A DNA stretch of 64,000 nucleotides, taken from Verrucomicrobiota bacterium. Lineage in GTDB: Bacteria; Verrucomicrobiota; Verrucomicrobiia; Limisphaerales; UBA9464. Position numbers and translations under genes: made by a program. How positions within the stretch are numbered: position 1 is the stretch's first letter; every line of letters begins with the position of its first letter. Below are positions 2,523-21,231 of the stretch, in pieces. The notes beneath the pieces are model-generated. The model was not told the origin of the DNA. It made no database searches and worked only from the letters and a program-made list of their open reading frames with translations. The stretch is from contig JAFLEF010000035.1 of the NCBI GenBank assembly GCA_017309115.1, positions 7,843 through 71,842 of the forward strand. Reading direction: 5' to 3'.

Positions 2523-2866
2523 AGAATTCATCAGTACTGCAGTTTCCAAATTGTTCCGGGCACGACCGGGCAAAACGCAGGGTGCTGCGCTGAATGCGAC
2601 CGTTCGACGGAAGTGTGGAAAATGACGCATGACGCGCGCCACGGTTACGCGTGAGCGAATCAATTCAGCAGATGTTCCGCCCGCTGATCGGTTCTATTCG
2701 CCAGCCTTTATCGGAACGACTAATCCAGTGGCTCGCTCCACCCCGCCGCGCTCACTTTCGGGGGCGAAGCGACTCCGGATGACTCCGGAGGACTTCGCGC
2801 CAACCCGTTCGCCGTCTTGACGCCTGACCTCCTGTTGCCTCTCATGCCGGGTCTTTCGAGACATAA

Positions 2867-4180
<1,314 letters not shown>

Positions 4181-4217
4181 ACGGTCGGGCCCTGCCCGTT
4201 CCACGTTCTGATTTCAA

Positions 4218-4252
4218 CCCCGGGAGCGATCCGCTCCCGGGGTTTTTGTTTT
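4218..4252 (+). terminator. Rho-independent terminator downstream of eno
   Basis: Perfect 11-bp stem CCCCGGGAGCG (4218-4228) / CGCTCCCGGGG (4232-4242), 3-nt loop, then TTTTTGTTTT (4243-4252). Confidence 0.85.
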
Positions 4253-4290
4253 CCGGAGGGAACGCCACCGCCCCTCCTCTGCTTTACCGC

Positions 4291-4339
4291 TTTACCCACC
4301 CCGACAGATCTTCAGATTCGCCGAAGTCATGAACAGATC
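4291..4339 (+). promoter_or_regulatory. Copy A of a 49-nt conserved promoter/5' leader block that includes the start codon (ATG AAC AGA TC)
   Basis: TTTACCCACCCCGACAGATCTTCAGATTCGCCGAAGTCATGAACAGATC matches 15953-16001 at 48 of 49 positions, in the same orientation. It ends 11 nt into the 4329 CDS (MNRS). Weaker similarity extends ~35 nt upstream and ~20 nt downstream. Confidence 0.6.
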
Positions 4340-7300
4340 GGAAACCCTGATTCGAACCCTCCTGCCTTTGATTCTTCGTTGGAGTCGCTTCGGGTGTCGC
4401 GGAGGCCGGGCGGTGTGGCTGTTAACGGGCTTCATTGCTTTGGCCCAACCCGACAACGACTCGTTTGCGGAGCGATTCGTCCTCCAGGGTAACTTCCTCA
4501 CGTTCTCCGGATTTACTTTGGGCGCGGAACTGGATCCGGCGGAAGCGACCCGGTTGCAAGTTCCGGCGGGAAGTGGAAAGGGAGCGGTCTGGTGGCAGTG
4601 GACGGCACCGGCTTCAGGCAGGTTGAAACTCTCAAACCCCGCTTACAACGGAGGCTGGGGAAAACGCTTCTTCTTCCGACTGATCGCCTTCGAAGGAAAG
4701 ACCTGGGATTCCCTCAGCTTGGCTGCGGAATTCAGCTCCAAAGAATCCATGGAGTTCTGGGTGAACGAAGGGGTCACCTATTGCTTCGCTATCATTGGAC
4801 CTTCGCGGCCCGAGTCCGTCTGGGATTTCACCCTCAACCTGGCGTTGCCGATGGCTCCGGCCAACGATTCCCCGGAGTCACCCCAGGAGTTGGTCGGGGA
4901 TTATCTCACCGCGGCGGGGACAACCCAATTCGCGAATCCCGATTCTGAGCTCCAGCCAAGCGTGTGGTGGACGTGGACTGCTCCGCGATCTGGTCAGGCG
5001 TTCCTCAAACTTCTCCCCTCGGATTCGACCGTCCGCTTCAAGGTTTGGAAACGCAGCACGTATCCGGCCGGGCCGGCCGTAGCATCCCAAATTCGCCTGA
5101 AGGATGACGCCACTCCAACGCTCTGGCCCACCCGGACCACTTGGTCAGCCGAGGCAGGTGAAATCTACCTCCTCTCGGCGATTCAGGACACCACCACAAC
5201 CCCGGGGACGTTCTCCTTTGAACTGTTGCTGTCGGAGTTCGGTTTGCGAGCCGATCAACCGTCCGTGCACGCCACCGATACGGTCGAGCTTCAACTGTTG
5301 GCGCCTACAAATTGGATCGGAGAGCGACACTTCACTCTGCACGATAGTGCGGCGCCCAGTCTCACCAATACGATCTCGGGTTTCCCGTGGGCGTGGTCCA
5401 ATGCCGTTCTTGGCACCCACCGCTTGGAAGCGGTTACCGTGGACTCTCTGGGCCGCCGTTGGCCCGCCACGAATTCAGTAGCGATTGGTGTCTTCGATCT
5501 ACAGTCCACCCCCACCAATGACTGGTTCGCCCAACGGACCGTCTTGACCACGGGCACGAATATTCTTTTATCCCTCGACTCCGCGAGCGCGGAACCCGGC
5601 GAACCTGGAAACGCCGATCACTCTGTTTGGTTCGAGTGGAAGGTGCCTACCGACGGCCGCCTGCAAATCTCCCGTTTCCCCTCCTCTCCATCGCCTCAGA
5701 TCGACGCTTATGTGGGTTCATCCTTGGGCGACCTGCGACCCCTCGTTGGAAATTCGCTCACCAATGGCGGAATTCTCGACCTCGTCTTCCCCGCCACCGC
5801 GAATCAACCGGTCCTGATCCGATTTTCCAGTCCCACCAATCATTATCGCTCGATCTCCCTGAGCATTGTGGGCGGACCAATTCCACCGAATGATGCCTGG
5901 ACCAATCGGACCATTCTTCCCTCTGGGAGTTTCCAAGTCGAAGGAAGTACTGGCTTGGCCAGCGTTGAGGCCCTGGATTCCGGGTTGGACTCACGAACGG
6001 TGTGGTTCGAGTGGACTCCTCCCGCAGAGGGAATTCTGGAACTCCCTAGCGCTCCCAGTGAAGGCAACAGAACGCTGTTATTCGCCGGTCCGGGATTTCC
6101 CAAGTCCGTTCTTCGCCCGCTGGAATTTGGCAGTCGGCTGCAATTCTTGGTTCATCCCACCACCAACTATTTTCTTGGTGTCCTGGGTCAGGGGTATTCC
6201 AGGTTCCCAGCCACGGGCGGTAGCTTTGCGTTCGCCGGAGTCTTCCACCCCCGACATTCCCACGATCGACTCACCAATGCCCATGTGCTTGCGGGAATCG
6301 ATATCGAACTGGCGGGAAGTTGGGCCGGCGCACTCTACGGCTACGCAACCTCCTTGCTGAACCCGTTTGATCGATACATCTGGTACGACTGGACGGCACC
6401 GGAATCTGGACAGGTCTGCTTGGCCTTCGAAACGCCCCATCCCACTTCAGTTGGCGTATTTCCACCCGGCGGTGATGGCAGCTACATCGCTACTCAACAA
6501 CAAGCGGGCCAGTGGGCTTTCACCGCCGTCGCGGGCAGCCGCTACCTGATCGCGATCGGTAGCTCATACCAAACACCCGACCTTTTCCGCGGCCGTCTCC
6601 AACGGCTCACGTCGCCGGAAAACGATCTATTCGAATTCAGCAAATCCATTCAAGGAACTCAGGCCCGACTCCGCGGAACATTTTTCTCGGGAGGCCGAGA
6701 GCCCGGCGAACCGGCTTTCCCACCGATCGCGAATTCCAACGCCTCCGTCTGGTGGACCTGGACCGCTCCCCATTCGGGTTGGGTTTCCCTGCGGCATTCC
6801 GCTCAGGTGGGTCTCCGGGTGTTTACCGGAACAGACGTGAGGCAGTTAGCCCCGGTTCCCACCGAGGGACCAGAGCCCTTCGAATTCGAGCAGGAGACAC
6901 GATTTGAAGTTGAAACCGGAATTTCATACCGAATCGCGGCGTACGGCTCGAATCTCCAACCTTTCCTGTTCGACGTAGATCTCAATCTTTCCACCTTTCG
7001 CGTAGCCCGGCCCGATGACCAAGCCGTTTTCAACTGGGGTGACCCCATCGAAGTCCAAGCCGCTGTCCCCGATCCGGTGGTGGATGGAGTGTTAAGCGGA
7101 CCGGTACACGTGGTGCCCGGGAACTTTCCCAGCCTCGATTTATTCAACGAATTCGGCACGATTCCCGGTCCGCCTGGCAGTGGCCTCATCCACCAATTCT
7201 CCCCGCCCTCCGTGACCTTCCGACTCTGGGCCACCAACACGGAAGGTTCGCTGCGCTACACGCCTCCAGTCCGCATCGAGGTTCGGGCCGCCCACGATGC

Positions 7301-9530
7301 CTTCGCCCGGGCGAAAGTGCTGACCGGGACTAATTGGACGGAAACTCTTTCTCTGACCGGCGCCACCTTCGAACCCGGCGAACCCTTCACCCAGGAGCCG
7401 AATCAAGGATCTGTTTGGGTCCAATGGCGGGCTCCCCATACCGGACACGCCCTGCTTTCACTTTTCGGAAACTCGGCCTCCGTCAAAGCGTACCAAGGAA
7501 CCACCTGGGGTACTCTACAGGAAGTCCCGGCTGCTCTTTTTCCAGTCAACCGGGGAACCGAGTACCGCTTTCAAATCATCAGCACCGCGCCAAATGCCTC
7601 GGCCGAACTGCGCCTCGAGTCGTATCCCTATCGCGTGGAAGTCGTGGGCCCGGGCATTCCCCGACGAAGTGAGCTGGCCTTTGAGTTGGTCACGGACATT
7701 CCGGCTAGCGAGATCGCCTCGGTCGAATACGTAACCTCCTACTTCGTGTCGCCGCCGGCCTACTTTCCCCCTTACCGGGTATCCGCCGCCAACACCGAGT
7801 TCCAAGCCGGCCCCCAATGGGTCCGTCCCCTCATTGAGTTCAAAAACGGGACGGTCTGGGAGATTCCCAGCAGCTTTACCCACAGCTGGCGTCCCGACAA
7901 TGACGACCTCGCCGACGCCTTCCGGATGGATTCGTTCTGGTGGGGTTGGGTGGGCACTGGAGGCGCGACCCTGGAACCTGGAGAGCCCGCTACCGCGAAC
8001 GGCCAAGGGTCCATTTGGTGGACCTTCGAAGCGCCGGAGGATGGCTATCTGAGCGTCTCCACCGGACACGCCAATCTCGCATTCGAAATCTTCTCCAACC
8101 CCGACAAGACCGGTTGGGCGAGGGCTATCCGGCTGGGACCACCCGCGCGGTCCCAAATCGTGGAGGTCCGCAAGCAGCAACGAATCCAGATTCGTTTGCT
8201 CGCGCCTCCCGGTGTTTTTGATGTCGAGCTCCGCTTCTCCCACGTCAGCACGAACACCATCGCGGAATCCGCCCCGGAACTGCCACCCAACGGCTCCGTG
8301 GCGGCGGGGTTTGGTCCCAGCCAGGGGCAATACCTGCACTGGTGGTTTCAACCGGAGCGTTCCGGACATCTGATCTTCGAGCCGGACTTTGGAGTCAGAG
8401 GTAACTTCCGGTGGCACGCTCTGAAAAATGGTGTCGATACTGGCGTTCCACTCTTCCAGGAATCACAGCAGGCGGTTCAGGCGGGCCAGCGGTATCTTTT
8501 GAAGATGTGGCTGGCGCCTCCCGATATTGGAACGGTGAACGGCCGTTTCCGCATCGTGGAACCGCGCCAAAATTACTCCTTCACCCGGCGTCTCACTCTG
8601 CCTCCGGAAGGTGTGAACGACTACTTCGTGACCAGTCCGTTTGCGAGCAATCTCCAGGAACCGGGTCTCGATCCTGGGGCTGATCTCACCCGCCTTCGGT
8701 CCTTTTGGTTCTCCTGGACCAGCCCGGTGCGCCAGTGGGTTGACCTCAGTGCCAGTGCCGTTGCCACGCTTGGGGTGTTCGAAGGGTCCGCTCTAGACAA
8801 CCTCCGGGTTCTCCATCTCTCCAACGAGTCCTACCTCAGCTTTCTGGCTCAAGCTGGCCAGACCTACCAGATTCTGGTGCGCGTCTACAGTCTGCCCGGC
8901 TACAATCCCACAGGTCAGTTGATCCCGGTCTATCTCGGTGCCCTCGCACCTCCCGCCAACGACGATTTTTCCCAGCGAACTCCGATTCCTGGTTCCTCCG
9001 CCGTCCTGACTGTCGCCAATCAGAATGCCACCCGTGAAGCCTTCGAACCGTGGCATCAAGGCCGTCTCTCCTTGGCCACATCCTGGTGGACGTGGACCGC
9101 TCCCTCCTCGGGCCAGCTGAAACTTCAGTTTCGCGGCCGATCCCCCCAGAACTGGATCACGCTCTACCAAGGAAACTCTCTCGATACGCTCACCGAACTC
9201 CCCTCCGTTCCCCTCGTCCCCTCCCGCCCCGGCGGTTGGTGGTCGGTTCAAGCGGATGAGGTTTACCAACTCGCCATCGCCAGCGACTACCATATGCCTA
9301 GTTCGGAACTCCTCTTTGAGTTCCTTCCCGACCCCGGCCCGCTGCAAGTCCACGTCGTGAATGATGAGCTCGAACTGACTTGGCCGCCGGATTTGGCGGC
9401 CGGCGTACTGGAGTCCTCGACCGGCTTCGCCACTGGTGATTGGGAAGAGATTCCGACCGGCGGTGCTACGACCCTCCGTCTTCCGATCTCCACTGCGGCC
9501 ACCCGCTTCTTCCGCCTGCGGCTGCCGTAG
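4329..9530 (+). CDS. Giant secreted repeat protein (1733 aa) with about 11 ND-F...EPGEP...WWxWTAPxSG modules and a C-terminal ...RFFRLRLP domain
   Basis: Long uninterrupted ORF. Signal peptide MNRSETLIRTLLPLILRWSRFGCRGGRAVWLLTGFIALAQP. Recurrent ~150-aa modules, e.g. NDWFAQRTVL..SAEPGEPGNADHSVWFEWKVPTDGRLQIS; ENDLFEFSKSI..GREPGEPAFPP..SVWWTWTAPHSGWVSLR; DNDDLADAF..TLEPGEPATANGQGSIWWTFEAPEDGYLSVS. No enzymatic motif recognised. Confidence 0.85.
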   Translation: MNRSETLIRTLLPLILRWSRFGCRGGRAVWLLTGFIALAQPDNDSFAERFVLQGNFLTFSGFTLGAELDPAEATRLQVPAGSGKGAVWWQWTAPASGRLKLSNPAYNGGWGKRFFFRLIAFEGKTWDSLSLAAEFSSKESMEFWVNEGVTYCFAIIGPSRPESVWDFTLNLALPMAPANDSPESPQELVGDYLTAAGTTQFANPDSELQPSVWWTWTAPRSGQAFLKLLPSDSTVRFKVWKRSTYPAGPAVASQIRLKDDATPTLWPTRTTWSAEAGEIYLLSAIQDTTTTPGTFSFELLLSEFGLRADQPSVHATDTVELQLLAPTNWIGERHFTLHDSAAPSLTNTISGFPWAWSNAVLGTHRLEAVTVDSLGRRWPATNSVAIGVFDLQSTPTNDWFAQRTVLTTGTNILLSLDSASAEPGEPGNADHSVWFEWKVPTDGRLQISRFPSSPSPQIDAYVGSSLGDLRPLVGNSLTNGGILDLVFPATANQPVLIRFSSPTNHYRSISLSIVGGPIPPNDAWTNRTILPSGSFQVEGSTGLASVEALDSGLDSRTVWFEWTPPAEGILELPSAPSEGNRTLLFAGPGFPKSVLRPLEFGSRLQFLVHPTTNYFLGVLGQGYSRFPATGGSFAFAGVFHPRHSHDRLTNAHVLAGIDIELAGSWAGALYGYATSLLNPFDRYIWYDWTAPESGQVCLAFETPHPTSVGVFPPGGDGSYIATQQQAGQWAFTAVAGSRYLIAIGSSYQTPDLFRGRLQRLTSPENDLFEFSKSIQGTQARLRGTFFSGGREPGEPAFPPIANSNASVWWTWTAPHSGWVSLRHSAQVGLRVFTGTDVRQLAPVPTEGPEPFEFEQETRFEVETGISYRIAAYGSNLQPFLFDVDLNLSTFRVARPDDQAVFNWGDPIEVQAAVPDPVVDGVLSGPVHVVPGNFPSLDLFNEFGTIPGPPGSGLIHQFSPPSVTFRLWATNTEGSLRYTPPVRIEVRAAHDAFARAKVLTGTNWTETLSLTGATFEPGEPFTQEPNQGSVWVQWRAPHTGHALLSLFGNSASVKAYQGTTWGTLQEVPAALFPVNRGTEYRFQIISTAPNASAELRLESYPYRVEVVGPGIPRRSELAFELVTDIPASEIASVEYVTSYFVSPPAYFPPYRVSAANTEFQAGPQWVRPLIEFKNGTVWEIPSSFTHSWRPDNDDLADAFRMDSFWWGWVGTGGATLEPGEPATANGQGSIWWTFEAPEDGYLSVSTGHANLAFEIFSNPDKTGWARAIRLGPPARSQIVEVRKQQRIQIRLLAPPGVFDVELRFSHVSTNTIAESAPELPPNGSVAAGFGPSQGQYLHWWFQPERSGHLIFEPDFGVRGNFRWHALKNGVDTGVPLFQESQQAVQAGQRYLLKMWLAPPDIGTVNGRFRIVEPRQNYSFTRRLTLPPEGVNDYFVTSPFASNLQEPGLDPGADLTRLRSFWFSWTSPVRQWVDLSASAVATLGVFEGSALDNLRVLHLSNESYLSFLAQAGQTYQILVRVYSLPGYNPTGQLIPVYLGALAPPANDDFSQRTPIPGSSAVLTVANQNATREAFEPWHQGRLSLATSWWTWTAPSSGQLKLQFRGRSPQNWITLYQGNSLDTLTELPSVPLVPSRPGGWWSVQADEVYQLAIASDYHMPSSELLFEFLPDPGPLQVHVVNDELELTWPPDLAAGVLESSTGFATGDWEEIPTGGATTLRLPISTAATRFFRLRLP

Positions 9531-9550
9531 GGACGCGGATGCACCCGGAG

Positions 9551-12500
9551 CTACCGGAGGGCTTCCAGTCGGTAGAAACGGACGGGAGGAACCTCGGGAG
9601 AAATATCCCGCCATTCCGCCCGACCGGTGCCGCCCAAACGGACCGACTCCACCGGGAACCAAGTCTCCAAGTCCTCGGAGGCCTGAACCACCACGACTTC
9701 TCCCGGCGCCCCGGCGAGCGTGAGTTGGGGCACGTTGTCCCAGGTTGCCTGCAGGATGGCCGGTGGCGGCACCACTGGCGCTTGCAGCGATAACCGGACC
9801 ACTCCCGTCTCTCCACCCGCTCCGCCCACCTGAATCTGATACACCTCGCCGGCCTGCGCCGTAAACTGAACAGCGCTGGAGAGCAGTATCCCCAGTTGTG
9901 CATCAGACGGTTCGTCATCACTGCTGGCCACAGTACTCAATTGAATCAGGGCCGTGCCGCGAAAGACGGACAGTTGAGTGTCAAACTGACTTCCGGTCGT
10001 CCTGACCGTGACCTCTCCAGAGGCGGGCGCCCGCCAAGTCCACCACAGCGTGGCACCGGTGGATGACCCAATGGGTCGAGGTTCGTCCACCTCCAGGGAT
10101 GCCCCGGTGCTGATGACGTAATCGACCAAACTGGAGCCGACCAGGGCACGGCGGTTTACAAAGTCATCATTTTTCGGTGGCTGAACCGGCTCCAGGACGA
10201 ACTCAAATCGACTCCGCGGGCTGTCCGGAACCTCCATGGCCAAGTAATAGGTGGCTCCAGCTTCCGCAAGAAACGTGAGCTCGGGAGCCGGACCGGTGGC
10301 TTCGCCGTTGCTCTTCAGCCGAGTCAATCCCAAGAGAGATTCACCCGCATAAACCGCCATGGCCGGAATCGTCCAATCGTTTATCGGGTCCTCAATCCGC
10401 CACCGCATGGTGGTCGTATGGGGTGATGTCCACCTCCACCAGCGCGACGTCTGCGCGACGGAACCGAAATGACCGGGCTCCCCGGGTTCGGCCGTTGCTC
10501 CCATCCCCGCCACCCAGGAGGTGGGCGCCGAACCGGTCAGTAGCTGCGCCTGGGCGAAGTTGTCGTTCGCCGGGGTCGGCAGCTGATACAACTGCACGGC
10601 AAACTTGAAGGCATCCAGCGAGAGGGTGTCCACCGCCAGCTGGAGTTTTTCTCCCGCTCGCGCTTCGAACCAACCGAATCCTCCGTCGGGAGAAACGTGT
10701 CGCGGAACGACTGTGAGTTTGGACAGATCGGTCCCGCGATAGATCCCCAGCGACAAGTCGAGACCCCGGCTCCACAGCGCGGACACCCACCAGCGACCAG
10801 ACTTCGGGACCGTCCATTCCCACCAAAGTGAACCTCGGCCCAACACACCTCCGTGAATGGGTTCACCCACTTCCCGTGTCGCCGCGGAGTTGTCCCCGGC
10901 CAATACCGGTGCCGAGCCCGCGATCGCGGTGCGGGCGACAAACGAATCATTGGCACCAAGGTCCGACAACAGGGTCAGCGTTAAGCCAAACTCCAACTCC
11001 TTGGGGAACCACCCGAAGTCTGACCTCTGGGCGAAAATTCGGACCCACCACGTTTCGCCCGCAGTAACAGGGGCACTCCAGCGACCCAAGGCCCCATCGG
11101 ACTGCACCGGCAGGAACAGTCCGTCCGGGGTCAGCGCAATGACCTCCAAACCGGTAAAAACCTCGCCGTTTTCTTCGAGGGGAGTTCGCCCAATGACCAC
11201 CCGACCCGACTCCGGCGCGGTCCACTGCACCCAGCGGCTGTCTCCGCGGCGGACGATTCCTTCATACGAAGGTGAAACCCCCACCAACTCCCGGGCGGTA
11301 TCGGCACTTGTGTTCTCGGCTCCAGGATCAATCGCGAACTGCAAAAAGTACTGCAAGTACGCATCCGGTCGGGAGCCGTCGATCGCCGGATAAACGGCAA
11401 TCTGATACGTCGTTCCAGCTTCCGCATAAAACGTCGCCACGCCGGAATCGCCAGTCGCCCTCACCAACACCAAATCACGCAACTGATCGCCCCGGAAAAC
11501 CGCCGCCGTCAGCGCCGGGACCGTCTGCCAAACGCCCAGTGGGAACTCGGGTTGATCACCAGGTGTCAGATCATAGTAGCCCGATCGCGGGGCTCTCCAG
11601 GACCACCACAAGGAAGGTGAGGCTCCGCCCACCGTCGGTTCGCCTGCTTCCCGAGAGGAGTTCTCTGCTCGAACCTGAACGCGGGGACGCTCTCCTGTGA
11701 GGCGCAGACGATCCACAAACTGATCGTTCGTCGGGACCGGCAACGCTTCAAACTCAAGCGCCGCCGCCGGAAACCATTCGTCGGCTCCATAGACACCGAT
11801 CAGATACGTTTGCCCCGCCTGCGCCAGGAAGTCGGGTCGACCATTGGGTGCGGAACTCGCCACCAAGAACGGGGTCGGACCTTCCAACCACACCGCCCAG
11901 TTGAAAGGGGCTCGGATCTGGTTTCGAATCATTGCGCGGAGGTCCCGGGGTGCGGTCCACCGCCACCACCGATCCACCCCTGGGAACGGCGCAGCCAAAT
12001 CCGCCGTTCGCGTCGCCCCCAGCAAGGAACCGGAAAGCACCGCCGATTCGCCCGAAACCAGAGCAGCGGTGGCCCAAGTGTCGCCGGCCACCGCCAGGGC
12101 CAAGTCCAGGACGATTCCCCCCTCTTCCGCCGGCGAATCCGGACTACCGTCTCCCGAGATCCAGTAGGCCGCACCCGCGACGGCCGAAAACTCCAATTCC
12201 CGGGTGAACGGATCCCCCGGCGTCCGCTCCGCCACTTCCGGTAACGAAACGAAAGCGCCCTCGGCCGTCAACGTCCACACCCCCATCCGGGGCGTCGAGG
12301 GGCTAGCCTCCAAGCCCGCAGGCAAGGAGGCGAGCGGAACCAAAGGCGAGCCACTGACCGTGCGCATCCGGAGTCGGGCGCGCCCCGCGTCGGGAGCGAT
12401 CCAGAGCCACCAAATGGACCGGGTGGCCGGTTGCGACGCAGCGTCCACTTCCCCGGGAGCAGCCGTCGCCGCTCGATGACTGGCAGCCACAGAGACCGCG

Positions 12501-15500
12501 AACCCTTCCAGCAGGGTCGCCCGATCCCAGTCATCATTCACCGGCGGTAGACCATCAGGAATCGTAGTCACCGAAAGCGTGAACAAGCTGTCGCGGCCCC
12601 CGATGGAGTCGATTACCAGTGGATACTCGACGCCGGGTTCAACGTGAAAGCGGATGACGTTCGACGTGTTCGTTCCTTGGCGGTACATGACCGTTCGGAG
12701 TTCACCGGAAGGCGTGCGTCGGAACTGCTCCAGATAAACCGGCGTGGAGCCGACCACGCTCACCTCGACCACCGCCGCTTCCGTGGGACGAATTGTCCAC
12801 CACCGGGTATGGCCCGAGAGACCGATCCCGTTGAGCCGTTCGCCAGGTTCCGCAGTGGCGGCATGGGTCTGACTTTCCACCGAAGCGGCGCTGCCCAATT
12901 CCGTGCGACCGGCAAACGAGTCATTCTGCCAGGGCTCATCGAGCCAGAGACGCAGCGGACCCACGCCCAATCCGGCGACCAAGATCTGAAGTTTCTCCCC
13001 GGCGGTCACCAGCAGGGCCCCGGGCCGATAGTGGGAGTTACCGACGGCCAGCAGAGACAGACCGCCGTCGTTCCCCATCCGGTAGACGGCCACATCATTT
13101 CCCTGAATCTCATAGTTCAATTTTCCCGAAGCCGGCGCGGTCCATTCCCACCAAATGCTAGACACCGGCCGCCAGGCAAACGGCAACACCGGATCACTGG
13201 GATCGCGGGTCGCCCGTGTCAGATCGCAGGCGAGGATCCGATCTCTTTCATTAATTCGAAAGCGGGCGGCAAAGAGATCATTTTCCGGAGGGGCAAAGGG
13301 CTTCAGCGTGATTTGACAGGGTGTCGGAGACAAAACCGCTCCGCTAGTTCCCCCGCTGAGGGCGAGGTGATACTCGTGGCCCGCCTGGACTTCCCAATCG
13401 AACCCCCCGGCGGCAAACACGGGCGACATCCGATACTGGAGTCGCTCCGGCGAATCGCCCTCGAAGACGGCCGCCTGGAGCAAGAGATTGGTCGAGTTTC
13501 CCAGAAGTCGGAAGGAAGCCACTCCGGAACTCGGCGCGATCCAGGAATACCACAGGGATCCAGGCAAGGACTCGGGCTCACCCGGCTCCCGCGATCCCAA
13601 CAGCTGGGGAATCGTCCACTCGGGAGTTGCGCCCGGGAGCATCGTTCGGTTGGCGAAGCGATCGTTCGCCGGCAGGTAGCCCAGCAAGAAGGGCGAAGGT
13701 TCATACGGGTACGTGAGAAACTCCGGAATGTCCGACCACACCAGCGCCAGCTGATACCGGGTGCCCGCCACCGCTTCGAACATGCTCCACCCGTCCGTTG
13801 TTTCGGTCTTGGCCACCGGGATCAAGGAAGCCAGTGAATCGCCTCGGAAGATCTCCAGGCGCGCGCCGCCGAACACGGTGACCATCCCTGACGCGGGGGC
13901 CGTCCATTCCCACCAAGTCCCATAGCCGCGAACCGAAGCGGGACCGGATGGATCTGTCGGCCCCGGCATCAGCGCCGGCCAGACACCGGACGCGCCGTTT
14001 AGCCGCCGGCGATCCGCGAAGCGATACGCGGGGTCCGCCGGAAGTAGTTTCAGATCGAACTGAAAACTTCCCAACGCCTGCCACCCAGAATGCACAACTC
14101 CGTAGTGCGGCTCCCCGGCCACAACCGGAAGAATTCCCGTCTGAACAACGCCTCCGACGTAGCTCAGGCTGCCCAGCTGAGTCCCCCGAAACAGACTCAA
14201 ATTGAAGAGCCCTTCATTCGTCCCTCGGGGAATGGTCACAAAACCCGAGCTGGGGGGAGTCCAGGTAAACCAGACCGAAGAGGCGCCCTCCAACCAGGGG
14301 GCCGCCGCAACATTGGTCTCACCGGTTGCTCCCACATTGTGGCCCCGCAGGGAAACCGAGTCACCCGTCAACCGGGTGGCGGAAGCGAACAGGTCATTGG
14401 TTTGACGTGGATAAAAACGCACGACCAATTCCCCGTCCACAAACTGCCGACGATCAAAGAGAGCCGAGCCCACGGCGACTTGCAGTGTCTCGTCCGCCTC
14501 TACCGGAAGAATCAATTCAAGCGATTCTGCATACTCAGAGATTCCGGAACGAACCTGAGCCTTGGTAATCAGGGCATCGATACGGGTTCCCTGAAAGACT
14601 CGAAGCTCCCGAGTCGCCACGTTTCTCCAATCCACCGGCGTGTGCACGAGGCGAAGAAATCCCGGCCCCGGGGCCGTCCAGGTCCACCAAACCGAGCCTT
14701 GAATGCCCGCTCCCCAATTGGGTTCGCCGACTTCCAAGGATGACCCTCCTAAGTCGCTCGGAACCTGTTCCGAGACCAACAATCGACGTCGGAAAGCAAA
14801 CTGGTCATGGGCCGCTCCCGACGAGTACTCAAGATCTCGGCGAACCATGATTCCCTGCGAATCCGTTAGGACAACAGCCAACCGAACCCACGAATCCGCC
14901 CACTTTCGGACGTCCAGTCTCCACGGAAACTGAGTTGAGGTCGCCTCGGGAACTTGTCCCGGCTCAATCATGCCCGTCAGAGGATCCACGAGAAATACAT
15001 CTGCCCGACGCCCGTTCGCGTCCTCAGTATCCACCTCGATCTGCACCGTTCCGTCGCTCCCCCGTACGACCTGAAATCCGGGAGACACCATCGGCACGGC
15101 AGCTCCCCGAAAAGCGGCGACCACTGAGGCGCGTTCATCAATCGTTCGCACATTGTTCGCCTGCCCCGGTACTCCCAATGGCTCCCGGTACACTTGAACC
15201 GAGGGATTCGAGAACGCCGGCAGGGTGTCACCTCCGGCCATCAGGGTGGACATTCCATTAGTCCGCCGATAGGCATGGGAATCGGGATATAGTCCCGGCT
15301 GCACGACTCGATTACCGGGCTCGGCGTCCACCGCCAACGGTCCGCAGCCCAACATGCGTCCGATGATCCGCGCAAACTCCCGAGGGCTCAGTTCCGTGGT
15401 GACGGCAAAGGCATTCGAAGAACCCACGGCCAACGGCGCAAAGGTGCCGATCGGACCCCACGTCGTTCGGTGCAACAGGACGACCAAATCCGCGGCCGAT

Positions 15501-15961
15501 CGGTCCCGGATCTCATGGGCCTCATCCAGATATCCGTCGTTGGCATTCACCAATCGTTGGTGCGTGTACTCCAGCGATTCGCCGAACATGAACAGCGATT
15601 TGGGCCAATAGGCCAGTCGTCCAGTGTGAACCAGCTGCACCCGAGTCCGCGACCCACTGTTCAGGAGGATCTGGTTGGCACCATCGACCAACAACTGGGC
15701 CTGCCCTGGCCCGCCTTCAGGGTCCGTCGGCCAGATCGGAAAAGTGGATAAGACGGCAACGTCCACCACCTGAATCGGCTCGTCTCCGACCGTCCGAGTC
15801 CAAGTCAAAGATATCGAGGACAGCCACAGGATGAGATACAGTCGGAGGGCTGGAATCCAACGGTCTGAGTTCGCGGATTTCACAAAGCCGGACCCTGACA
15901 ACGTCACAGCCGCAATGCAAACAGGAGGAAGCCCGAATTCCCGCTTTGCCAATTTACCCAC
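9551..15961 (-). CDS. Giant secreted protein (2136 aa): N-terminal reprolysin-like (M12B-like) domain with a substituted zinc site, about 13 EPGEP/WWxWTAP modules, C-terminal ...RFYRLEALR domain
   Basis: Long ORF convergent with 4329-9530 (20-nt gap between stops). Modules include SREPGEPESLPGSLWYSWIAPSSGVASF, ATAEPGEPGHFGSVAQTSRWWRWTSP and SLEVDEPRPIGSSTGATLWWTWRAPASGEVTV. The start is uncertain. ATG 15961 lies inside the duplicated leader block. GTG 15883 would give MKSANSDRWIPALRLYLILWLSSISLTWT, a better signal peptide. Confidence 0.85.
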   Translation of the reverse strand: MGKLAKREFGLPPVCIAAVTLSGSGFVKSANSDRWIPALRLYLILWLSSISLTWTRTVGDEPIQVVDVAVLSTFPIWPTDPEGGPGQAQLLVDGANQILLNSGSRTRVQLVHTGRLAYWPKSLFMFGESLEYTHQRLVNANDGYLDEAHEIRDRSAADLVVLLHRTTWGPIGTFAPLAVGSSNAFAVTTELSPREFARIIGRMLGCGPLAVDAEPGNRVVQPGLYPDSHAYRRTNGMSTLMAGGDTLPAFSNPSVQVYREPLGVPGQANNVRTIDERASVVAAFRGAAVPMVSPGFQVVRGSDGTVQIEVDTEDANGRRADVFLVDPLTGMIEPGQVPEATSTQFPWRLDVRKWADSWVRLAVVLTDSQGIMVRRDLEYSSGAAHDQFAFRRRLLVSEQVPSDLGGSSLEVGEPNWGAGIQGSVWWTWTAPGPGFLRLVHTPVDWRNVATRELRVFQGTRIDALITKAQVRSGISEYAESLELILPVEADETLQVAVGSALFDRRQFVDGELVVRFYPRQTNDLFASATRLTGDSVSLRGHNVGATGETNVAAAPWLEGASSVWFTWTPPSSGFVTIPRGTNEGLFNLSLFRGTQLGSLSYVGGVVQTGILPVVAGEPHYGVVHSGWQALGSFQFDLKLLPADPAYRFADRRRLNGASGVWPALMPGPTDPSGPASVRGYGTWWEWTAPASGMVTVFGGARLEIFRGDSLASLIPVAKTETTDGWSMFEAVAGTRYQLALVWSDIPEFLTYPYEPSPFLLGYLPANDRFANRTMLPGATPEWTIPQLLGSREPGEPESLPGSLWYSWIAPSSGVASFRLLGNSTNLLLQAAVFEGDSPERLQYRMSPVFAAGGFDWEVQAGHEYHLALSGGTSGAVLSPTPCQITLKPFAPPENDLFAARFRINERDRILACDLTRATRDPSDPVLPFAWRPVSSIWWEWTAPASGKLNYEIQGNDVAVYRMGNDGGLSLLAVGNSHYRPGALLVTAGEKLQILVAGLGVGPLRLWLDEPWQNDSFAGRTELGSAASVESQTHAATAEPGERLNGIGLSGHTRWWTIRPTEAAVVEVSVVGSTPVYLEQFRRTPSGELRTVMYRQGTNTSNVIRFHVEPGVEYPLVIDSIGGRDSLFTLSVTTIPDGLPPVNDDWDRATLLEGFAVSVAASHRAATAAPGEVDAASQPATRSIWWLWIAPDAGRARLRMRTVSGSPLVPLASLPAGLEASPSTPRMGVWTLTAEGAFVSLPEVAERTPGDPFTRELEFSAVAGAAYWISGDGSPDSPAEEGGIVLDLALAVAGDTWATAALVSGESAVLSGSLLGATRTADLAAPFPGVDRWWRWTAPRDLRAMIRNQIRAPFNWAVWLEGPTPFLVASSAPNGRPDFLAQAGQTYLIGVYGADEWFPAAALEFEALPVPTNDQFVDRLRLTGERPRVQVRAENSSREAGEPTVGGASPSLWWSWRAPRSGYYDLTPGDQPEFPLGVWQTVPALTAAVFRGDQLRDLVLVRATGDSGVATFYAEAGTTYQIAVYPAIDGSRPDAYLQYFLQFAIDPGAENTSADTARELVGVSPSYEGIVRRGDSRWVQWTAPESGRVVIGRTPLEENGEVFTGLEVIALTPDGLFLPVQSDGALGRWSAPVTAGETWWVRIFAQRSDFGWFPKELEFGLTLTLLSDLGANDSFVARTAIAGSAPVLAGDNSAATREVGEPIHGGVLGRGSLWWEWTVPKSGRWWVSALWSRGLDLSLGIYRGTDLSKLTVVPRHVSPDGGFGWFEARAGEKLQLAVDTLSLDAFKFAVQLYQLPTPANDNFAQAQLLTGSAPTSWVAGMGATAEPGEPGHFGSVAQTSRWWRWTSPHTTTMRWRIEDPINDWTIPAMAVYAGESLLGLTRLKSNGEATGPAPELTFLAEAGATYYLAMEVPDSPRSRFEFVLEPVQPPKNDDFVNRRALVGSSLVDYVISTGASLEVDEPRPIGSSTGATLWWTWRAPASGEVTVRTTGSQFDTQLSVFRGTALIQLSTVASSDDEPSDAQLGILLSSAVQFTAQAGEVYQIQVGGAGGETGVVRLSLQAPVVPPPAILQATWDNVPQLTLAGAPGEVVVVQASEDLETWFPVESVRLGGTGRAEWRDISPEVPPVRFYRLEALR

Positions 15962-16001
15962 CCCGACAGATCTTCAAATTCGCCGAAGTCATGAACAGAT
16001 C
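15953..16001 (+). promoter_or_regulatory. Copy B of the 49-nt conserved promoter/5' leader/start-codon block
   Basis: TTTACCCACCCCGACAGATCTTCAAATTCGCCGAAGTCATGAACAGATC has a single mismatch to 4291-4339. It contains the ATG (15991) of the cytochrome P460-like gene, which also begins MNRS. Confidence 0.6.
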
Positions 16002-16638
16002 AGCCAACCCTGGCCGCACCTCAAATCCTCGAAGGCGGGCTCTCCCGATCAGTCGCATTAACCCGGTTCTTTTCCTGCTGACCGTCGCGATGGTCTTCGC
16101 CGGTTGCGAGAAGTCCGCGGCTCCGGAAACAGTCGGCGAGCCTGATTCGCCCAGGATTTCCGAACTCGCCGTTACGTACACCAACTTGGTTCTAATGACG
16201 CAGGAAGAGGTTTTTGTTAATCCGGAGCTGGCTAGGTTGTGCCGGGGAATTTATCAGGAGGAGGTCGAAGCAGCTCGGACCCAATTCGGTCCGCACGCCA
16301 ATACCAGCATTCGGGTTTTCATGAACCCACCCGCCGCGGATGCCCTGAAGAGCAACCTGATCCCCTATCCCGTGGGATCCGTGATCGTGAAGCAGAAGAT
16401 GTCGCTGGGGTATCAACGGAGTGACGGAACTGACGTCGGTGCTGGAACGGCGGGAGTCGGCGGGATGGTGAAACGCCGCCCCGGATACGATCCCACGCAC
16501 GGCGACTGGGAATACTTCTATGAGGAAGGGAAAGGACCCCTGGAAAGCGGACGCCTTTCCACCTGCGTGACCTGCCATTCCTCAGCCCGGGACCGCGACC
16601 ACGTGTTCGGAACCTGGAGACACCGATCTTCACCCTGA
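15991..16638 (+). CDS. Cytochrome P460-like heme-binding lipoprotein
   Basis: The first ATG of the track ORF 15946-16638 (which starts at TTG) is at 15991. MNRSANPGRTSNPRRRALPISRINPVLFLLTVAMVFAGCEKS gives a signal peptide plus lipobox (FAGC). The C-terminal region ..YPVGSVIVKQK..HGDWEYFYEEG..STCVTCHSSARDRDHVF has the single CxxCH and surrounding pattern of the P460 family. Confidence 0.65.
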   Translation: MNRSANPGRTSNPRRRALPISRINPVLFLLTVAMVFAGCEKSAAPETVGEPDSPRISELAVTYTNLVLMTQEEVFVNPELARLCRGIYQEEVEAARTQFGPHANTSIRVFMNPPAADALKSNLIPYPVGSVIVKQKMSLGYQRSDGTDVGAGTAGVGGMVKRRPGYDPTHGDWEYFYEEGKGPLESGRLSTCVTCHSSARDRDHVFGTWRHRSSP

Positions 16639-17015
16639 GTCACCCGTGGCAATTCCTCGAACTGAGTGCTGCGTTCTGAACGCCGGGCCAGGCGCCTGGG
16701 CTTTCGAGCCCCTGGCTAATCAGCTCGCTGTTAGTCGATGGTTTTCTGATGGCCGGCGTGTATCGGGGTCTGCGCCGACAGGATCCCAGTCACTGGTGGC
16801 AAGGGGCCTCTCGGAAAACGTGGCTCTCCGCCGCGGCGGTGATTTTCTTCTTCAGTATCGCCGGACTGGCACTTCAAGTCGCCGTTCCCGAGGCCCATTC
16901 CATCGGAGCGGTCGTCCGACATTGGTGAAAGTCTCGGACGAGCGACCGGCCGTCCCCTACCTGTGGTCTGCCAAACCAAACCACGGATCGTTGATTCCCT
17001 CGGGTACCCCCGAAC

Positions 17016-18743
17016 TCACTTCGGCAGCCAAGGCTTGATCAACTCCAACTCGGCGCCCTTTAGCTTGGAGGTGTCGACCTTCTGGGCCATCAATCGCGCA
17101 GCTTCCCGTTGCTGATTGGCGCCCAGGATCGCCGCGTACACGGCAATCCAGCGCGGTTCCTGGGTCTCCCAATCGGTCTTGACGCTCTCGATCAAGGTCA
17201 ACGCCTCGGCATTGTTCCCCGCCTTGAGTTGCCCCAAGGCCATCACCAATGGATACAACTGTTCGTCGGGTGCCTTCTTGGCGCGGCGAGCCAGCGTCGC
17301 CCGGACCTCCGGCGTGCTCTCTCCAATCAGAAAACTGGCGTAGGCTGCGCCCAGATACAGGCTGTCATCTTGAGGCATGAAGGCCGAGAGCTTCTTGAGC
17401 GTGTCACGGATGGTGAAGATGTCGTCCTGAGGCCCGACCAACCGCATGATTTGTCGTCCGGCGGGAACTGTCAGAGGGGGGTATTGCATGAGCCGCTGGT
17501 AGGCGGCCACCGCCGCCATCGGCTGGCCCATTTTTTCGGCATAGGCGGCAATCGCGAGAACCTTGCGATAGTCATTTCCCGCCGCCGCCAGCGCGCTGTC
17601 AAAATGGGTGCGAACGAGGAAATTCTTGTTCTGCTTCTCGGCCGCCAACGCATTCAAGCAATGCTGCAGGTACGGCTCCACCGGCGGATCCTGCATCTGG
17701 AGATACGGCAGGACCTCGTTGACGCGGTCGGCCAGAATCAGCGCTTCAAGACGGGCGGTCAGGAGCGGCGGATTGCCCAGCACGCGTTCCTCAGTGAGCA
17801 GATCGGGTATGCGCATCACTTCGCCATTGTCCCGCAACCAGGTGGCATACCGCAGCAACTCCTGCGTGTTGGTGGTGCCCTGTATGAGGCCGACGATTTC
17901 CTCAATGATTTTGGGGCGATCCCCAGGTTCCAACCGCAGACGCAAGTTGGCCATCTCAGTTTGGGAGTTGGTCCGCTCGGCCAGAGCCTTGAGCAACAGC
18001 TGAGTCTCACCTCGGGGTAGATCCGGCATTCGGGCCAGGGCATCTACGGCTTCATTCCGTTGCGGAGACTTACCCACTGCCAACGCCATTAACAACCGCT
18101 GCGCCCGGTCGCGATACCCCGGATCCTGCGAACCCGCCAGCAACATGCCCAAGGTCAATTCCGCCTCCGGCTTGGTCGGCTCCTTCTGCAGCCATTCTCC
18201 CGCCACCATGATGGCTTTGTCCGGATCCCCCAACGCTTGAAAGTGACGTACCATCAGCCGCAGGAACGCCGGATCCGTCCGATTGGTTTTGAAGATGTTC
18301 GCTATCTCCGCACCCGACAAATCGACACGATTGAAGTCCAACGCCATTTGGATGTAGTCCAACCGATCCTGCCACGTGGCCGCTCCGCTGCGAACGAGCG
18401 CCTGCATGGTAATCAGGCCGTTGGCGCTGCCCGACTTGGCGTTCAAGCGACTGGAGATGCGCAGGACCTTCGGATGCGTTGGGGCCAGGCCCGACGCGGT
18501 GCGCAGCATCTTCGCCGCCTCGGCATACTTGCCTTTATCAGCCAATGCCTGGGCGTCTTCTATCAGCATGACCGCCCGCTTTTCCTTAATCCGTTTATAC
18601 GCCGGACGCCCCACGAACCAGCCCACCACCCCCAGGATCACCAACCCGACCACGAGGTAGGCAAACCGATGGGACGTCCCCGGCCCCCGCTGACGCACGC
18701 GGGCCTTGAAGAGAGCGGTATCGGAAGAGGGAGTCGGTTCCAT
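17016..18743 (-). CDS. Membrane-anchored TPR-like repeat protein (paralog of 32191-33939)
   Basis: 575-aa ORF with an N-terminal TM helix (FAYLVVGLVILGVVGWFV) and an all-helical Ala/Leu-rich repeat body. It is colinear with the 582-aa protein at 32191-33939, including the shared C-terminal ...L(I/V)(K/D)PWLP(K/N) ending. Confidence 0.8.
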   Translation of the reverse strand: MEPTPSSDTALFKARVRQRGPGTSHRFAYLVVGLVILGVVGWFVGRPAYKRIKEKRAVMLIEDAQALADKGKYAEAAKMLRTASGLAPTHPKVLRISSRLNAKSGSANGLITMQALVRSGAATWQDRLDYIQMALDFNRVDLSGAEIANIFKTNRTDPAFLRLMVRHFQALGDPDKAIMVAGEWLQKEPTKPEAELTLGMLLAGSQDPGYRDRAQRLLMALAVGKSPQRNEAVDALARMPDLPRGETQLLLKALAERTNSQTEMANLRLRLEPGDRPKIIEEIVGLIQGTTNTQELLRYATWLRDNGEVMRIPDLLTEERVLGNPPLLTARLEALILADRVNEVLPYLQMQDPPVEPYLQHCLNALAAEKQNKNFLVRTHFDSALAAAGNDYRKVLAIAAYAEKMGQPMAAVAAYQRLMQYPPLTVPAGRQIMRLVGPQDDIFTIRDTLKKLSAFMPQDDSLYLGAAYASFLIGESTPEVRATLARRAKKAPDEQLYPLVMALGQLKAGNNAEALTLIESVKTDWETQEPRWIAVYAAILGANQQREAARLMAQKVDTSKLKGAELELIKPWLPK

Positions 18744-18807
18744 AAGCGTTCAGGCGAGATTCACTATTGCAGCTCGAATTGAAATTGGCCACTGCGGAGA
18801 CCTACCG

Positions 18808-20040
18808 TCAGCCGGGCGGAGCGGCGACGGAATCACAGTCGCTCCCCACCCCGTTCCAACGAATCACCGACACCGAAGCTCCCTGGGGCAAGGTCTGCCG
18901 CGGGGGAACGTCCACCAGTCCGTCGGCGAGCGCGAGTGAACCCAACCGATGAGACGCCTGCACTCCCGCCAGCGAAACCCGCCCGGCTTCCGTCCGCACC
19001 CGGACAAAATGCCGCCGCCGATCTCCGTTGATCAACGGTTCCGCCAGCAGGGCCGGAGTCCAGGGAGGCAGGACCGAGCTTCGCCCTGCCAGTCGCCGCA
19101 CCGCCGGAAGGACCAACAGCACCGCCGTCACAAAGGCCGAGACCGGATTCCCCGGGAGCCCGGTTAAAAGCCGCCCCGACCGCATTCCCCAGAAGAACGG
19201 CTTGCCCGGCTTGAGCGCGACTTCCCCGTCAAAAATGGTCCCACCTAACCGGCGGCCGATCGATCGAACCAAATCCGGTTCCCCCACCGAGGCGCCCCCT
19301 GAAGTCACCAGCAGGTCCACCCGCGCCCACGCCGGATCAAGCGCGGCCGCCAAGGCATCCTCCCGGTCTGGAACCGCCGGCATTACTTCCACTTCAACCC
19401 CCTCGGCGAGCAACAACTCCCGCAGCATGAGGCTATTGCTTTCGTAAATCTGACCCGGCTTCAGAGGTTGTCCCGGAATCACCAATTCACTCCCGGTGAC
19501 TAGAATGCCAACCCGGGGACGTCGGCTCACCCGCACCGTCGAAACCCCCGCCGCCGCCAGCAAACCCAGCTTGGCGGGTCCAAGACGTCCCCCCACGGCC
19601 AGTAAAGGTCGACCCAACGCCACATCTTCGCCCCGAAACCGCACGCTCTCCCAGGGTTTGACGCCTTCAAGTATGGTCACCTCGCCCGTCGGCGGGGTCA
19701 CCAGTTCCGTGTCCTCCTGCATCACCACGGCATCGGCTCCGGGCGGCAACGGAGCTCCGGTGAACACCCGAACGGTCTGACCCGGCCCCAGGATCCCGGA
19801 AAAGGTTTCCCCGGGAGCGACTCGACCAATGACCTGCAGGCGAACCGGAGTGGATCGGGTATCGGCCGCGCGCACCGCGTAGCCATCCATGGCGACAGTA
19901 TCCACAGGTGGGATCGCGGTGGTGGAACTGGGAGCTGACGCCAGGACACGACCGGCCGCATGGTTGAGAATGACCTCCTCGGAATCGAGGGGTTGAAGCG
20001 CCGAGAGCAACTCCGCGCGAACTTCCTCCAGCGCCCGCAT
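18808..20040 (-). CDS. moeA: Molybdopterin molybdenumtransferase MoeA
   Basis: 410 aa, with the VAMDGYAVRAAD motif, the MoeA domain order and ..SGGASVGEPDLV.. in the MoCF-binding domain. Confidence 0.9.
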   Translation of the reverse strand: MRALEEVRAELLSALQPLDSEEVILNHAAGRVLASAPSSTTAIPPVDTVAMDGYAVRAADTRSTPVRLQVIGRVAPGETFSGILGPGQTVRVFTGAPLPPGADAVVMQEDTELVTPPTGEVTILEGVKPWESVRFRGEDVALGRPLLAVGGRLGPAKLGLLAAAGVSTVRVSRRPRVGILVTGSELVIPGQPLKPGQIYESNSLMLRELLLAEGVEVEVMPAVPDREDALAAALDPAWARVDLLVTSGGASVGEPDLVRSIGRRLGGTIFDGEVALKPGKPFFWGMRSGRLLTGLPGNPVSAFVTAVLLVLPAVRRLAGRSSVLPPWTPALLAEPLINGDRRRHFVRVRTEAGRVSLAGVQASHRLGSLALADGLVDVPPRQTLPQGASVSVIRWNGVGSDCDSVAAPPG

Positions 20041-20046
20041 GAAGAA

Positions 20047-21231
20047 TCAAGCGGCGCCGCCGCCGCCTTTGGTGACCGAACTCACGATGGGCACGGTTGG
20101 CACTGAATCGCCAGCCGCCTTCTTGGCCGCGACCGCCGTAATCCGTTCCTCGCTGGCAATGAAGAAGTGCCGCAAGCGGACGCGCCACATCACCGTGAAG
20201 CCCACTGCCAGGGCCGCAAACAAGGCGCTCAAAAACAACTGACCGCCCTTGTCCATCAACGACAGCGTGATCGAGAGCAAACCCGTCACAATCGCCACCG
20301 CATACAGCGTCCAAGCCGCCTGCCGGTGGCTCAAGCCCATGGCCAGTAGACGATGGTGCACATGGTTTTTATCCGCCTGGAAAATCGAGACGTTGCGCCG
20401 CCAGCGGTGATACATGACCCGGGTCGTGTCGAACAACGGAAGGGCGAAGAGCAGCAGCGGAACGGTGAGCAGGGAACTAGCCCCTTGCACGCCTTGGGAC
20501 CGGTCATTGAACAGGGAAATGATGGCGATGCACGACAACAGCATGCCAATCGTCAACGAACCTGAATCGCCGAGGAAGATGCGGGCCGGCGCGTGGTTGT
20601 GGGGCAAAAACCCGAGGCAGGCCCCGGCCAGGGCGAGGTTGAGCAGCGAAACGATGACGTTGTGGGACAGAATGTTGATCACCGCCAGCGAAAGGGCCAT
20701 GCAGGCCGTGACCCCGGCCACCAAGCCGTCAATGCCATCCAACAAGTTCACCGCATTGGTCACGCCAACAATCCAAAGTACCGTAAACGGGAGGCTCAGC
20801 AGATCGAGTCCGATGGGTTCGCCAAATGGATTCATGATCGCGTCGATCCTGAATCCGCCGAACCACAGCCCCGTAGCGATCGCCACCTGGGCCAGAAACT
20901 TCTTGGAGGCATCGGCGCCCTTCATGTCGTCGTAGACCCCGAGAGCCAACATGGCGAGCGAGCCCAGGAGGAGCGGAATGAACAAATTCGCGACGTTGCG
21001 AAACTCATCGGCAATGGAGTTTTGCAACAAGGGCACGGCCGCCAGGGAAAGCAGGAAGCCCAGGTAAACGGCCACTCCACCCAAGCGCGGCATGGCATGG
21101 GAGTGAACCTTGCGCTCGTTGGGCAGATCCACCGCCCCAACCTTGAAAGCCAGCCAACCCGCCACCGGGGTCAGCCAAAAGGCCGCCAAGGCGGACATGA
21201 CCAGGATTCCCAGGTAGGTGTTGTATCTCAT
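20047..21231 (-). CDS. Polyprenyl-phosphate N-acetylhexosamine-1-phosphate transferase (MraY/WecA family)
   Basis: 394 aa, polytopic membrane protein. Motifs DLPNERKVHSHAMPRLGG, VYDDMKG, NAVNLLDGIDGL and NHVHHRLL are typical of the WecA/MraY superfamily. ATGA overlap with the upstream GT gene. Confidence 0.9.
   Translation of the reverse strand: MRYNTYLGILVMSALAAFWLTPVAGWLAFKVGAVDLPNERKVHSHAMPRLGGVAVYLGFLLSLAAVPLLQNSIADEFRNVANLFIPLLLGSLAMLALGVYDDMKGADASKKFLAQVAIATGLWFGGFRIDAIMNPFGEPIGLDLLSLPFTVLWIVGVTNAVNLLDGIDGLVAGVTACMALSLAVINILSHNVIVSLLNLALAGACLGFLPHNHAPARIFLGDSGSLTIGMLLSCIAIISLFNDRSQGVQGASSLLTVPLLLFALPLFDTTRVMYHRWRRNVSIFQADKNHVHHRLLAMGLSHRQAAWTLYAVAIVTGLLSITLSLMDKGGQLFLSALFAALAVGFTVMWRVRLRHFFIASEERITAVAAKKAAGDSVPTVPIVSSVTKGGGGAA

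Follow-up and report, generated by a model that had tools for sequence, protein, structure and literature searches.

A direct duplication of the 5′ end of a P460-like gene borders an 11.6-kb pair of giant genes that appears to be present or absent among related bacteria

Islands that target tRNA genes and the icd-integrating prophages e14 and phage 21 duplicate the 3′ end of the gene they enter and thereby carry a replacement for the gene end that they disrupt; these elements encode an integrase. In Campbell-type or merodiploid products, two direct copies of a homologous segment flank the insert, their outer halves being continuous with the chromosome and their inner halves with the insert. 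A single copy is present at the empty site, which recombination between the two copies restores precisely. A 49–59-nt identical direct repeat with its copies 11.7 kb apart is an adequate substrate for RecA-dependent deletion or gene conversion. The recA mobile element (RME) of Vibrio cholerae, which likewise brings a substitute for the interrupted gene end, encodes a phage integrase and XerS (PMC4405046). The minimal mobile elements of Neisseria are integrase-free cassettes between conserved flanks, present or absent by lineage, and show a mosaic divergence that stems from exchange by homologous recombination (PMC3787668, PMC1797815). Here, we describe a locus of an uncultured Verrucomicrobiota-like bacterium that resembles several of these systems. 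It lies in a window of 64,000 nt (assembly GCA_017309115.1, contig JAFLEF010000035.1, positions 7,843 to 71,842 of the forward strand), in which a 49-nt direct repeat brackets two giant genes between eno, the enolase gene, and a gene for a cytochrome-P460-family lipoprotein (P460 hereafter).

We consider it probable that the repeat marks a duplicated promoter–start unit of P460, and that the two unit copies bracket a reversible two-gene insertion in a Campbell-type topology. The locus is a well-documented new instance of a known process, the gain and loss of genes by recombination at short repeats. Its less common feature is the duplicated segment itself, a putative promoter plus a start codon from which the cargo gene is read in frame.

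The segments 4291–4339 (copy A) and 15953–16001 (copy B) have the same orientation and agree at 48 of 49 positions, as the preliminary description of this DNA had it. The sole mismatch is G4315 in copy A versus A15977 in copy B. When the window was shuffled 100 times, no match arose. The other features listed in that description were also found: the ATG and the MNRS codons in both copies (ATG at 4329 and 15991) and, in copy A, TTTACC (4291–4296), the AGATCT palindrome (4306–4311), and two ACAGATC direct repeats (4304–4310 and 4333–4339) that start 29 nt apart. At a fixed offset of 11,662 nt, ungapped identity extended to 55 of 59 positions (4281–4339 versus 15943–16001) and was at background level beyond. 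BLAST and a pattern search of the own genome (7.53 Mb, 111 contigs) returned only two copies of the block, so the generic motif upstream of many genes, which would have spoken against the preliminary reading, did not turn up; the remaining genome matches were at chance level (14–17 nt). Exact-pattern scans of public genome and metagenome contig collections gave no match to the 49-nt core. A dispersed regulatory or repetitive extragenic palindromic (REP)-like family, which would have many copies upstream of unrelated genes, was rejected, as the own genome has two copies and the two public collections have none. The repeat does not represent a family of regulatory motifs. Short repeat pairs number in the hundreds in this genome and lie mostly within repeat proteins. 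A direct repeat by itself is therefore unremarkable, and the informative features are its position and the empty sites found in relatives.

Homologues of the P460 protein occur in public assemblies at 97, 87, 81, and 73% identity, and we compared their contigs with the window. The site is empty in L029 (JGI 3300048583), L030 (ENA ERZ27257534), and L035 (JGI Ga0075163), where the 3′ end of eno is followed by the terminator, a single unit, and P460. L035 is the same species as L030 (99.7% identity), obtained from a different sample and with a different assembler. The evidence for the empty site thus comprises three contigs from three samples and two lineages. Window 3850–4349 aligned with L029 1–496 at 92% identity and window 15924–16729 with L029 407–1205 at 91%, and about 90 nt of L029 aligned with both window copies. 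The preliminary description had proposed to look for relatives in which eno is directly followed by P460, and these three contigs have this order with one unit. Their single units support its reading of the repeat as a duplication scar, and their arrangement is the product that it had predicted for recombination between the copies, with both giant genes precisely lost.

Occupied sites were found in L028, L031, L034, and L039. L028 and L039 belong to the window species (99% identity) and come from SRR10663364 and SRR10663365. L031 carries the 5′ end of giant gene 2, copy B, and P460, while L034, a 62-kb ENA scaffold, carries eno, copy A, and giant genes 1 and 2. Both window junctions were thus seen in independent assemblies, which shows that the window arrangement is not an assembly artefact. 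We regard the structure and its presence/absence polymorphism as well supported by these comparisons. Among the 12 GTDB species representatives of the same genus, none has a P460 orthologue or any gene in common with the window downstream of eno, so they are of no use as an outgroup. At loci L021–L027, synteny stops right after eno in every same-genus representative examined, and no P460 or giant genes stand there. What follows the 3′ end of eno thus seems to vary within the genus. Remoter P460 homologues, with an amino-acid identity of at most 58%, have unrelated contexts, and a search for same-species deletion variants gave no exact-protein record for the window P460.

The 49-mer is the best-conserved part of a direct duplication of about 89–95 nt. 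In the alignments, the duplicated piece reaches from behind the eno terminator to codon 7 of P460, the resident gene whose 5′ end was duplicated. It is the putative 5′ expression unit of P460 and would contain its promoter, a short leader, and the start codon. In the multiple alignment, the left border of the unit is GGAGG (4255 and 15924), directly past the T-run of the terminator, and the right border is CCCTG (ending at 4349 and 16012), within codon 7. The weaker upstream similarity of about 35 nt noted earlier is true homology that starts at GGAGG, although its length is only about 29–36 nt. Downstream, the proposed 20 nt of similarity shrank to about 10 nt, up to CCCTG. The left parts of copies A and B compared by themselves were not significantly similar (507 of 2000 shuffles reached the score), whereas none of 2000 shuffles reached the score of the left part of the L030 unit against copy B. 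The upstream homology is thus significant because relatives were included. Still further left, 15858–15874 in the signal-peptide coding region of giant gene 2 matches 4203–4216, just past the eno stop codon, at 14 of 17 positions (TCCAACGGTCTGAGTTC versus TCCAAGGTTCTGATTTC in relatives; p ~0.02–0.1). This similarity could be due to chance or be a trace of an original duplication extending further left, and we do not claim it for the unit.

The halves of the two units behave differently. A-left is collinear with the left part of the empty site, and B-right is collinear with its right part. The inner halves, B-left and A-right, go with the cassette and are conserved alongside it in L031 and L034. 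B-left reads TTTGCCA in the window, L028, and L031, and TTTGCC is kept in the L034 copy. In its place, A-left and the empty sites have TTTACCGC, and copy A of L034 has TTTACCAC. A-right is common to the window and L034. The flanks of the core diverge fast among the copies.

The locus has the two direct homology copies, the assignment of outer and inner halves, and the one-copy empty site of a Campbell-type product. A single crossover of this type would leave the outer repeat halves in the chromosome and the inner halves in the insert; a template-switch duplication–insertion would yield the same structure. Copy A, still attached to eno, would drive giant gene 1, whose reading frame opens with the copied P460 ATG and thus carries a short N-terminal fusion (MNRS...). 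P460 would receive the same signals from copy B. Homologous recombination between the 49–59-nt cores would delete both giant genes precisely and leave eno, one unit, and P460. Gene conversion or a recent crossover may hold the cores identical inside one genome, and selection on the expression of the downstream genes may conserve them across species. Unlike in Campbell-type products, no plasmid, phage, or circular form was seen, and the homology segment is only ~90 nt long. Moreover, it would consist of a promoter and a start codon, with the incoming gene fused in frame to the first codons of the resident. RecA-dependent recombination at short repeats, which we infer here from comparisons, should result in precise loss and in homogenised repeats, and the data agree with it on both counts.

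Homogenisation is apparent in the core. Within the 49-mer, orthologous copies differ at 3–7 positions between lineages, and window copies A and B differ at one. This mismatch is private to the window strain, as copy B of L028 and L039 has G and equals copy A at 49 of 49 positions. Both window copies read GCCGAAGTC where all relatives have a GCGGCAGTC-like sequence, and two of their shared bases are unique to the window copies. The shared derived bases and the near-identity argue that the window copies exchanged sequence recently. This points to gene conversion, or else to a recent crossover within the core.

The P460 protein tree had the topology (L031 occupied, (L030 empty, (L029 empty, (window, L028)))), with support of 100/99 for the clade of five, 98/96 for window plus L029, and 80/70 for the node joining L030. 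In the tree of the eno 3′ part, L029 was the partner of the window (89/83), and L030 and L034 joined these two in a wider clade (81/94). Since occupied and empty lineages are interleaved in the trees, at least two losses or three gains are needed. The decayed copy B in L034 indicates that this lineage formerly had the full order of copy A, cassette, copy B, and P460. With some reserve, we favor an occupied ancestor with recurrent precise loss over repeated gain.

Several observations weigh against the duplication–insertion account as a whole. Neither a circular nor a donor form turned up, and the nearest other, non-orthologous homologue of giant gene 2 (38% identity) stands alone in a different context. 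A sigma-70 consensus scan of the unit returned no promoter, and it is position and conservation that suggest promoter activity. The contigs with the empty site are short (1.3–1.5 kb), and an assembler jump through the repeat would yield an identical sequence. If so, the duplication and the insertion would be real, the single units of L029 and L030 would be chimeras that follow the path from A-left through the core to B-right, and there would be no presence/absence polymorphism. The repeat does disturb assembly: the SRR10663365 short-read contig (L039:1–60) stops inside the core at ...GTCATGAACAG. The repeat thus breaks assemblies here, which calls for caution with short contigs at this locus. 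We think chimeras unlikely, because three assemblies from two lineages agree, one of them is a k141 contig with k far above the 59-nt core, and assemblers normally break at such repeats, as in L039, instead of joining across them.

Divergence levels are a further counterpoint. Between the window and L034, the synonymous divergence (dS) of giant gene 2 is 0.18, as compared with 0.66–0.74 for the flanking genes. For giant gene 1, dS is 0.6–2.3 in the N-terminal half and 0.15–0.5 in the C-terminal half. These uneven levels indicate that lineages have exchanged the cassette, and repeated gain is therefore plausible. The empty site would then be ancestral, and the cassette with its own unit copy would have entered the window, L034, and L031 lineages separately, with no deletions needed. 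The route would be homologous recombination with the DNA of relatives, either as a double crossover in eno and P460 or through a circular molecule that recombined once at the unit. In line with such a history, the cassette is more alike between lineages than its flanks: besides the low dS of giant gene 2 relative to L034, the window and L031 are 88% identical at the 5′ edge of giant gene 2 and 78% in the adjoining P460. Moreover, the mosaic identity profile shows recombination tracts across the locus. However, the available trees require three gains versus two losses, and the decay of copy B in L034 speaks for the full arrangement having once been present there. Between the window and L031, B-left has diverged as much as the DNA around it, which suggests long residence. 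Repeated gain is therefore a possible history, which we hold to be the less probable one.

The mosaic divergence suggests allele replacement and inter-lineage recombination within the cassette. The ratio of nonsynonymous to synonymous divergence (dN/dS) for the cassette is 0.18–0.36 (window versus L034). The cassette is functional and has been swapped between lineages by recombination. At the nucleotide level, window 4929–15900 is 64–77% identical to L034 in the N-terminal half of giant gene 1 and 90–97% identical in its C-terminal half and giant gene 2, a closer match than in the flanking housekeeping genes (dS ~0.7).

At the empty sites, nothing but the unit separates the eno terminator from the P460 ATG. 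The P460 promoter must therefore lie within the unit, unless read-through supplies P460. After the duplication, giant gene 1 and P460 would both sit behind the same signals. The preliminary description had set a shared leader with co-regulation against a duplication scar. The shared leader is not an alternative to the duplication; co-regulation would follow from it, because the duplicated unit contains all the sequence from the eno terminator to the ATG.

The seven copies compared, which represent five lineages, have three stretches of the core without any variation, namely TTTACCCACC, GATCT.CAGATTCGC, and GTCATGAACAGATC. The third stretch takes in synonymous positions of codons 2–4. A sigma-70-like candidate promoter, plausible but weak, combines TTTACC as the −35 element, a 16-nt spacer, and CAGATT (4313–4318) as the −10 element, matching the consensus hexamers at 7 of 12 positions. 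ATG 4329 sits 10 nt downstream of this −10 element, so the mRNA would be nearly leaderless if that promoter reading holds. An 8-nt tandem duplication, GCTTTACC-GCTTTACC, lies at 4281–4297, right at the candidate −35 element, in copy A and in the empty-site units; copy B has GCTTTGCCAATTTACC at this site.

The invariant sub-blocks, together with a possible hairpin that could sequester the AUG, might also be taken for an independent regulatory motif (operator, leader, or riboswitch) shared by the two genes, with no history of duplication or insertion. We find this hardly credible. The block has two copies in 7.5 Mb and one in the empty site of relatives, homology extends beyond the core, and the topology is Campbell-type. 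Rfam gave no relevant match for the unit at E ≤ 1, and none of the 12 pairs in the hairpin predicted by RNAalifold covaries. Phase variation through Dam/GATC was rejected as well: no PF02086 methylase was found, and GATC is common in the genome (observed/expected 1.8).

The duplicated unit also bears on the annotation of both giant genes. Giant gene 1 starts at the copied P460 ATG (4329). L034 holds ATG-AAC-AGA-TCG in frame with the giant gene 1 open reading frame (ORF), and the alternative TTG at 4368 is CTG there. In L034, P460 is absent, copy B is decayed (ATG to AGG, with many substitutions), and copy A is intact. Decay of copy B but not of copy A indicates that the conservation of each copy tracks the gene it serves. 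Beside the decayed unit B, L034:20655–21001 (corresponding to window 15915–16642) has ~310 nt of unrelated sequence in place of P460. Another L034 segment, 21090–21717 (~630 nt, part of a 234-aa ORF without a Pfam match), is absent from the window near 16730.

For giant gene 2, GTG 15883 is the sole start-capable codon conserved in the window, L028, L031, and L034; GTG 15907 and GTG 15961 are not conserved. Conservation in these four lineages bears out the earlier preference for GTG 15883. The minus-strand ATG that had been placed at 15961 proved to be a GTG. With GTG 15883 as the conserved start, copy B does not overlap the coding sequence of giant gene 2. Called starts of giant gene 2 differ, being 15883 in L034, 15907 in L028, and 15961 in the ORF list. 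The minus-strand frame 15883–15961 is open and seemingly conserved at the amino-acid level in four lineages. In annotation, the copied ATG and GTG 15883 are the starts of giant genes 1 and 2, respectively.

The content of the insert was inspected for mobility functions. The two convergent giant genes are its only content and fill the segment. No recombinase or transposase domain was found in it with Pfam and NCBIfam, and of the 20 tyrosine recombinase (PF00589) matches in the genome, none is on contig C41, which carries the locus. There is no tRNA or tmRNA within window 1–20000, and the insert does not end in terminal inverted repeats. The GC content of the insert is that of the flanks, with no compositional anomaly. 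An integrase-mediated genomic island was rejected, as there is no recombinase in or next to the insert and no tRNA or tmRNA target. A transposon or insertion sequence with target-site duplication was also rejected (no inverted repeats, no transposase, and a duplication of ~90 nt versus the expected 2–14 bp).

In a related idea, attL and attR of an integrative element with site-specific recombination would make up the two copies, its recombinase would be encoded elsewhere or lost, and the core would be the crossover site. The diverged arms would be an element-borne replacement of the target gene end, as in elements of icd, recA, and tRNA genes. The locus does share with gene-end-replacing elements a target gene kept functional via a second copy of the disrupted part, and an identical 49–59-nt core between homologous but diverged arms. 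The inner arms accompany the insert like element-borne gene-end copies, and the core has the AGATCT palindrome and the direct ACAGATC repeats. However, the two ORFs leave no room for a recombinase, and the searches for its domain, for a recombinase gene on the locus contig, and for a tRNA were all negative. The composition is native, and the core is conserved in empty-site lineages as the 5′ end of a gene. Unlike in gene-end-replacing elements, the duplicated part is a 5′ end, no recombinase is present, and the cargo gene uses the copied start codon. We consider an att-site origin improbable.

Closer to our preferred account of recombination at short repeats are the Neisseria minimal mobile elements, with which the locus shares the integrase-free cassette between conserved flanks, its presence or absence by lineage, and the mosaic divergence. 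Neither flanking direct repeats nor a duplicated promoter–start unit is a defining trait of those elements. In contrast to Neisseria, the hosts here are uncultured Verrucomicrobiota-like bacteria.

At the base level, the locus offers a view of how an uncultured soil or freshwater bacterium may have gained 11.6 kb of giant surface-protein genes, or can lose them, with no mobile-element machinery involved. A short duplication of promoter and start would let an incoming gene take the expression signals of the resident, with the resident still served. For population genomics, this is a flexible, recombining site where short-read assemblies break. A more far-reaching idea, which we regard as doubtful, is that the unit is a dual-purpose adapter, at once a compact, nearly leaderless promoter–start module and the recombination site of an integrase-free, self-contained cassette. 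An excised circle would then leave giant gene 1 with a complete promoter–ATG unit. Re-integration at the eno–unit–P460 site of any relative would give immediate expression of the cargo with the resident gene unsilenced. Frequency-dependent selection on surface proteins (e.g., by phage or predators), and not neutral gain and loss, would then account for the presence/absence polymorphism and for the hypervariability of giant gene 1 in its N-terminal half.

Table 1. Coordinates of the features at the locus, in window positions.
Feature	Position	Strand	Basis or remark
eno (enolase), left flank	2888..4180	+	Pfam Enolase_N and Enolase_C, E 1e-60 to 1e-124
eno intrinsic terminator	4216..4252	+	13-bp stem (hairpin 4216–4244) plus T-run; terminator scan
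Unit A	4255..4349	+	window 3850–4349 aligns to empty-site L029 1–496; multiple alignment; shuffle tests
Unit A, outer-left	4255..4280		joined to eno
Unit A, core	4281..4339
Unit A, inner-right	4340..4349		joined to giant gene 1
49-nt core, copy A	4291..4339	+	near-identical part of unit A; conserved blocks TTTACCCACC, GATCT.CAGATTCGC, GTCATGAACAGATC
Giant gene 1 (1733 aa, secreted multi-module protein)	4329..9530	+	first 6–7 codons copied from P460
Inserted segment (11,574 nt)	4350..15923	.	BLAST break points versus L029, L030, L035
Giant gene 2 (GTG start at 15883; 2110 aa), converging on giant gene 1	9551..15883	-	start conserved
Unit B	15924..16012	+	window 15924–16729 aligns to L029 407–1205; multiple alignment; shuffle tests
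Unit B, inner-left	15924..15942		giant gene 2 upstream side
Unit B, core	15943..16001
Unit B, outer-right	16002..16012		joined to P460
Cytochrome-P460-family lipoprotein gene (215 aa)	15991..16638	+	Pfam PF16694, E 1.4e-12

Among the flanking features (Table 1), eno is kept in all relatives at 88–98% amino-acid identity, and the hairpin of its strong terminator, right behind which the duplicated unit starts, is conserved in L029, L030, and L034. Both giant genes encode secreted, multi-module proteins with weak Pfam matches to GBD_T9SS_assoc and PPC and with repeated WW.WTAP-coding modules. Elsewhere in the own genome, repeat pairs of 35–400 nt with at least 90% identity occur, for example at C16:110226–110478, C102:89–18615, and C19:48567–66555. 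Repeat families of ~97–125 nt recur there both in tandem and dispersed.

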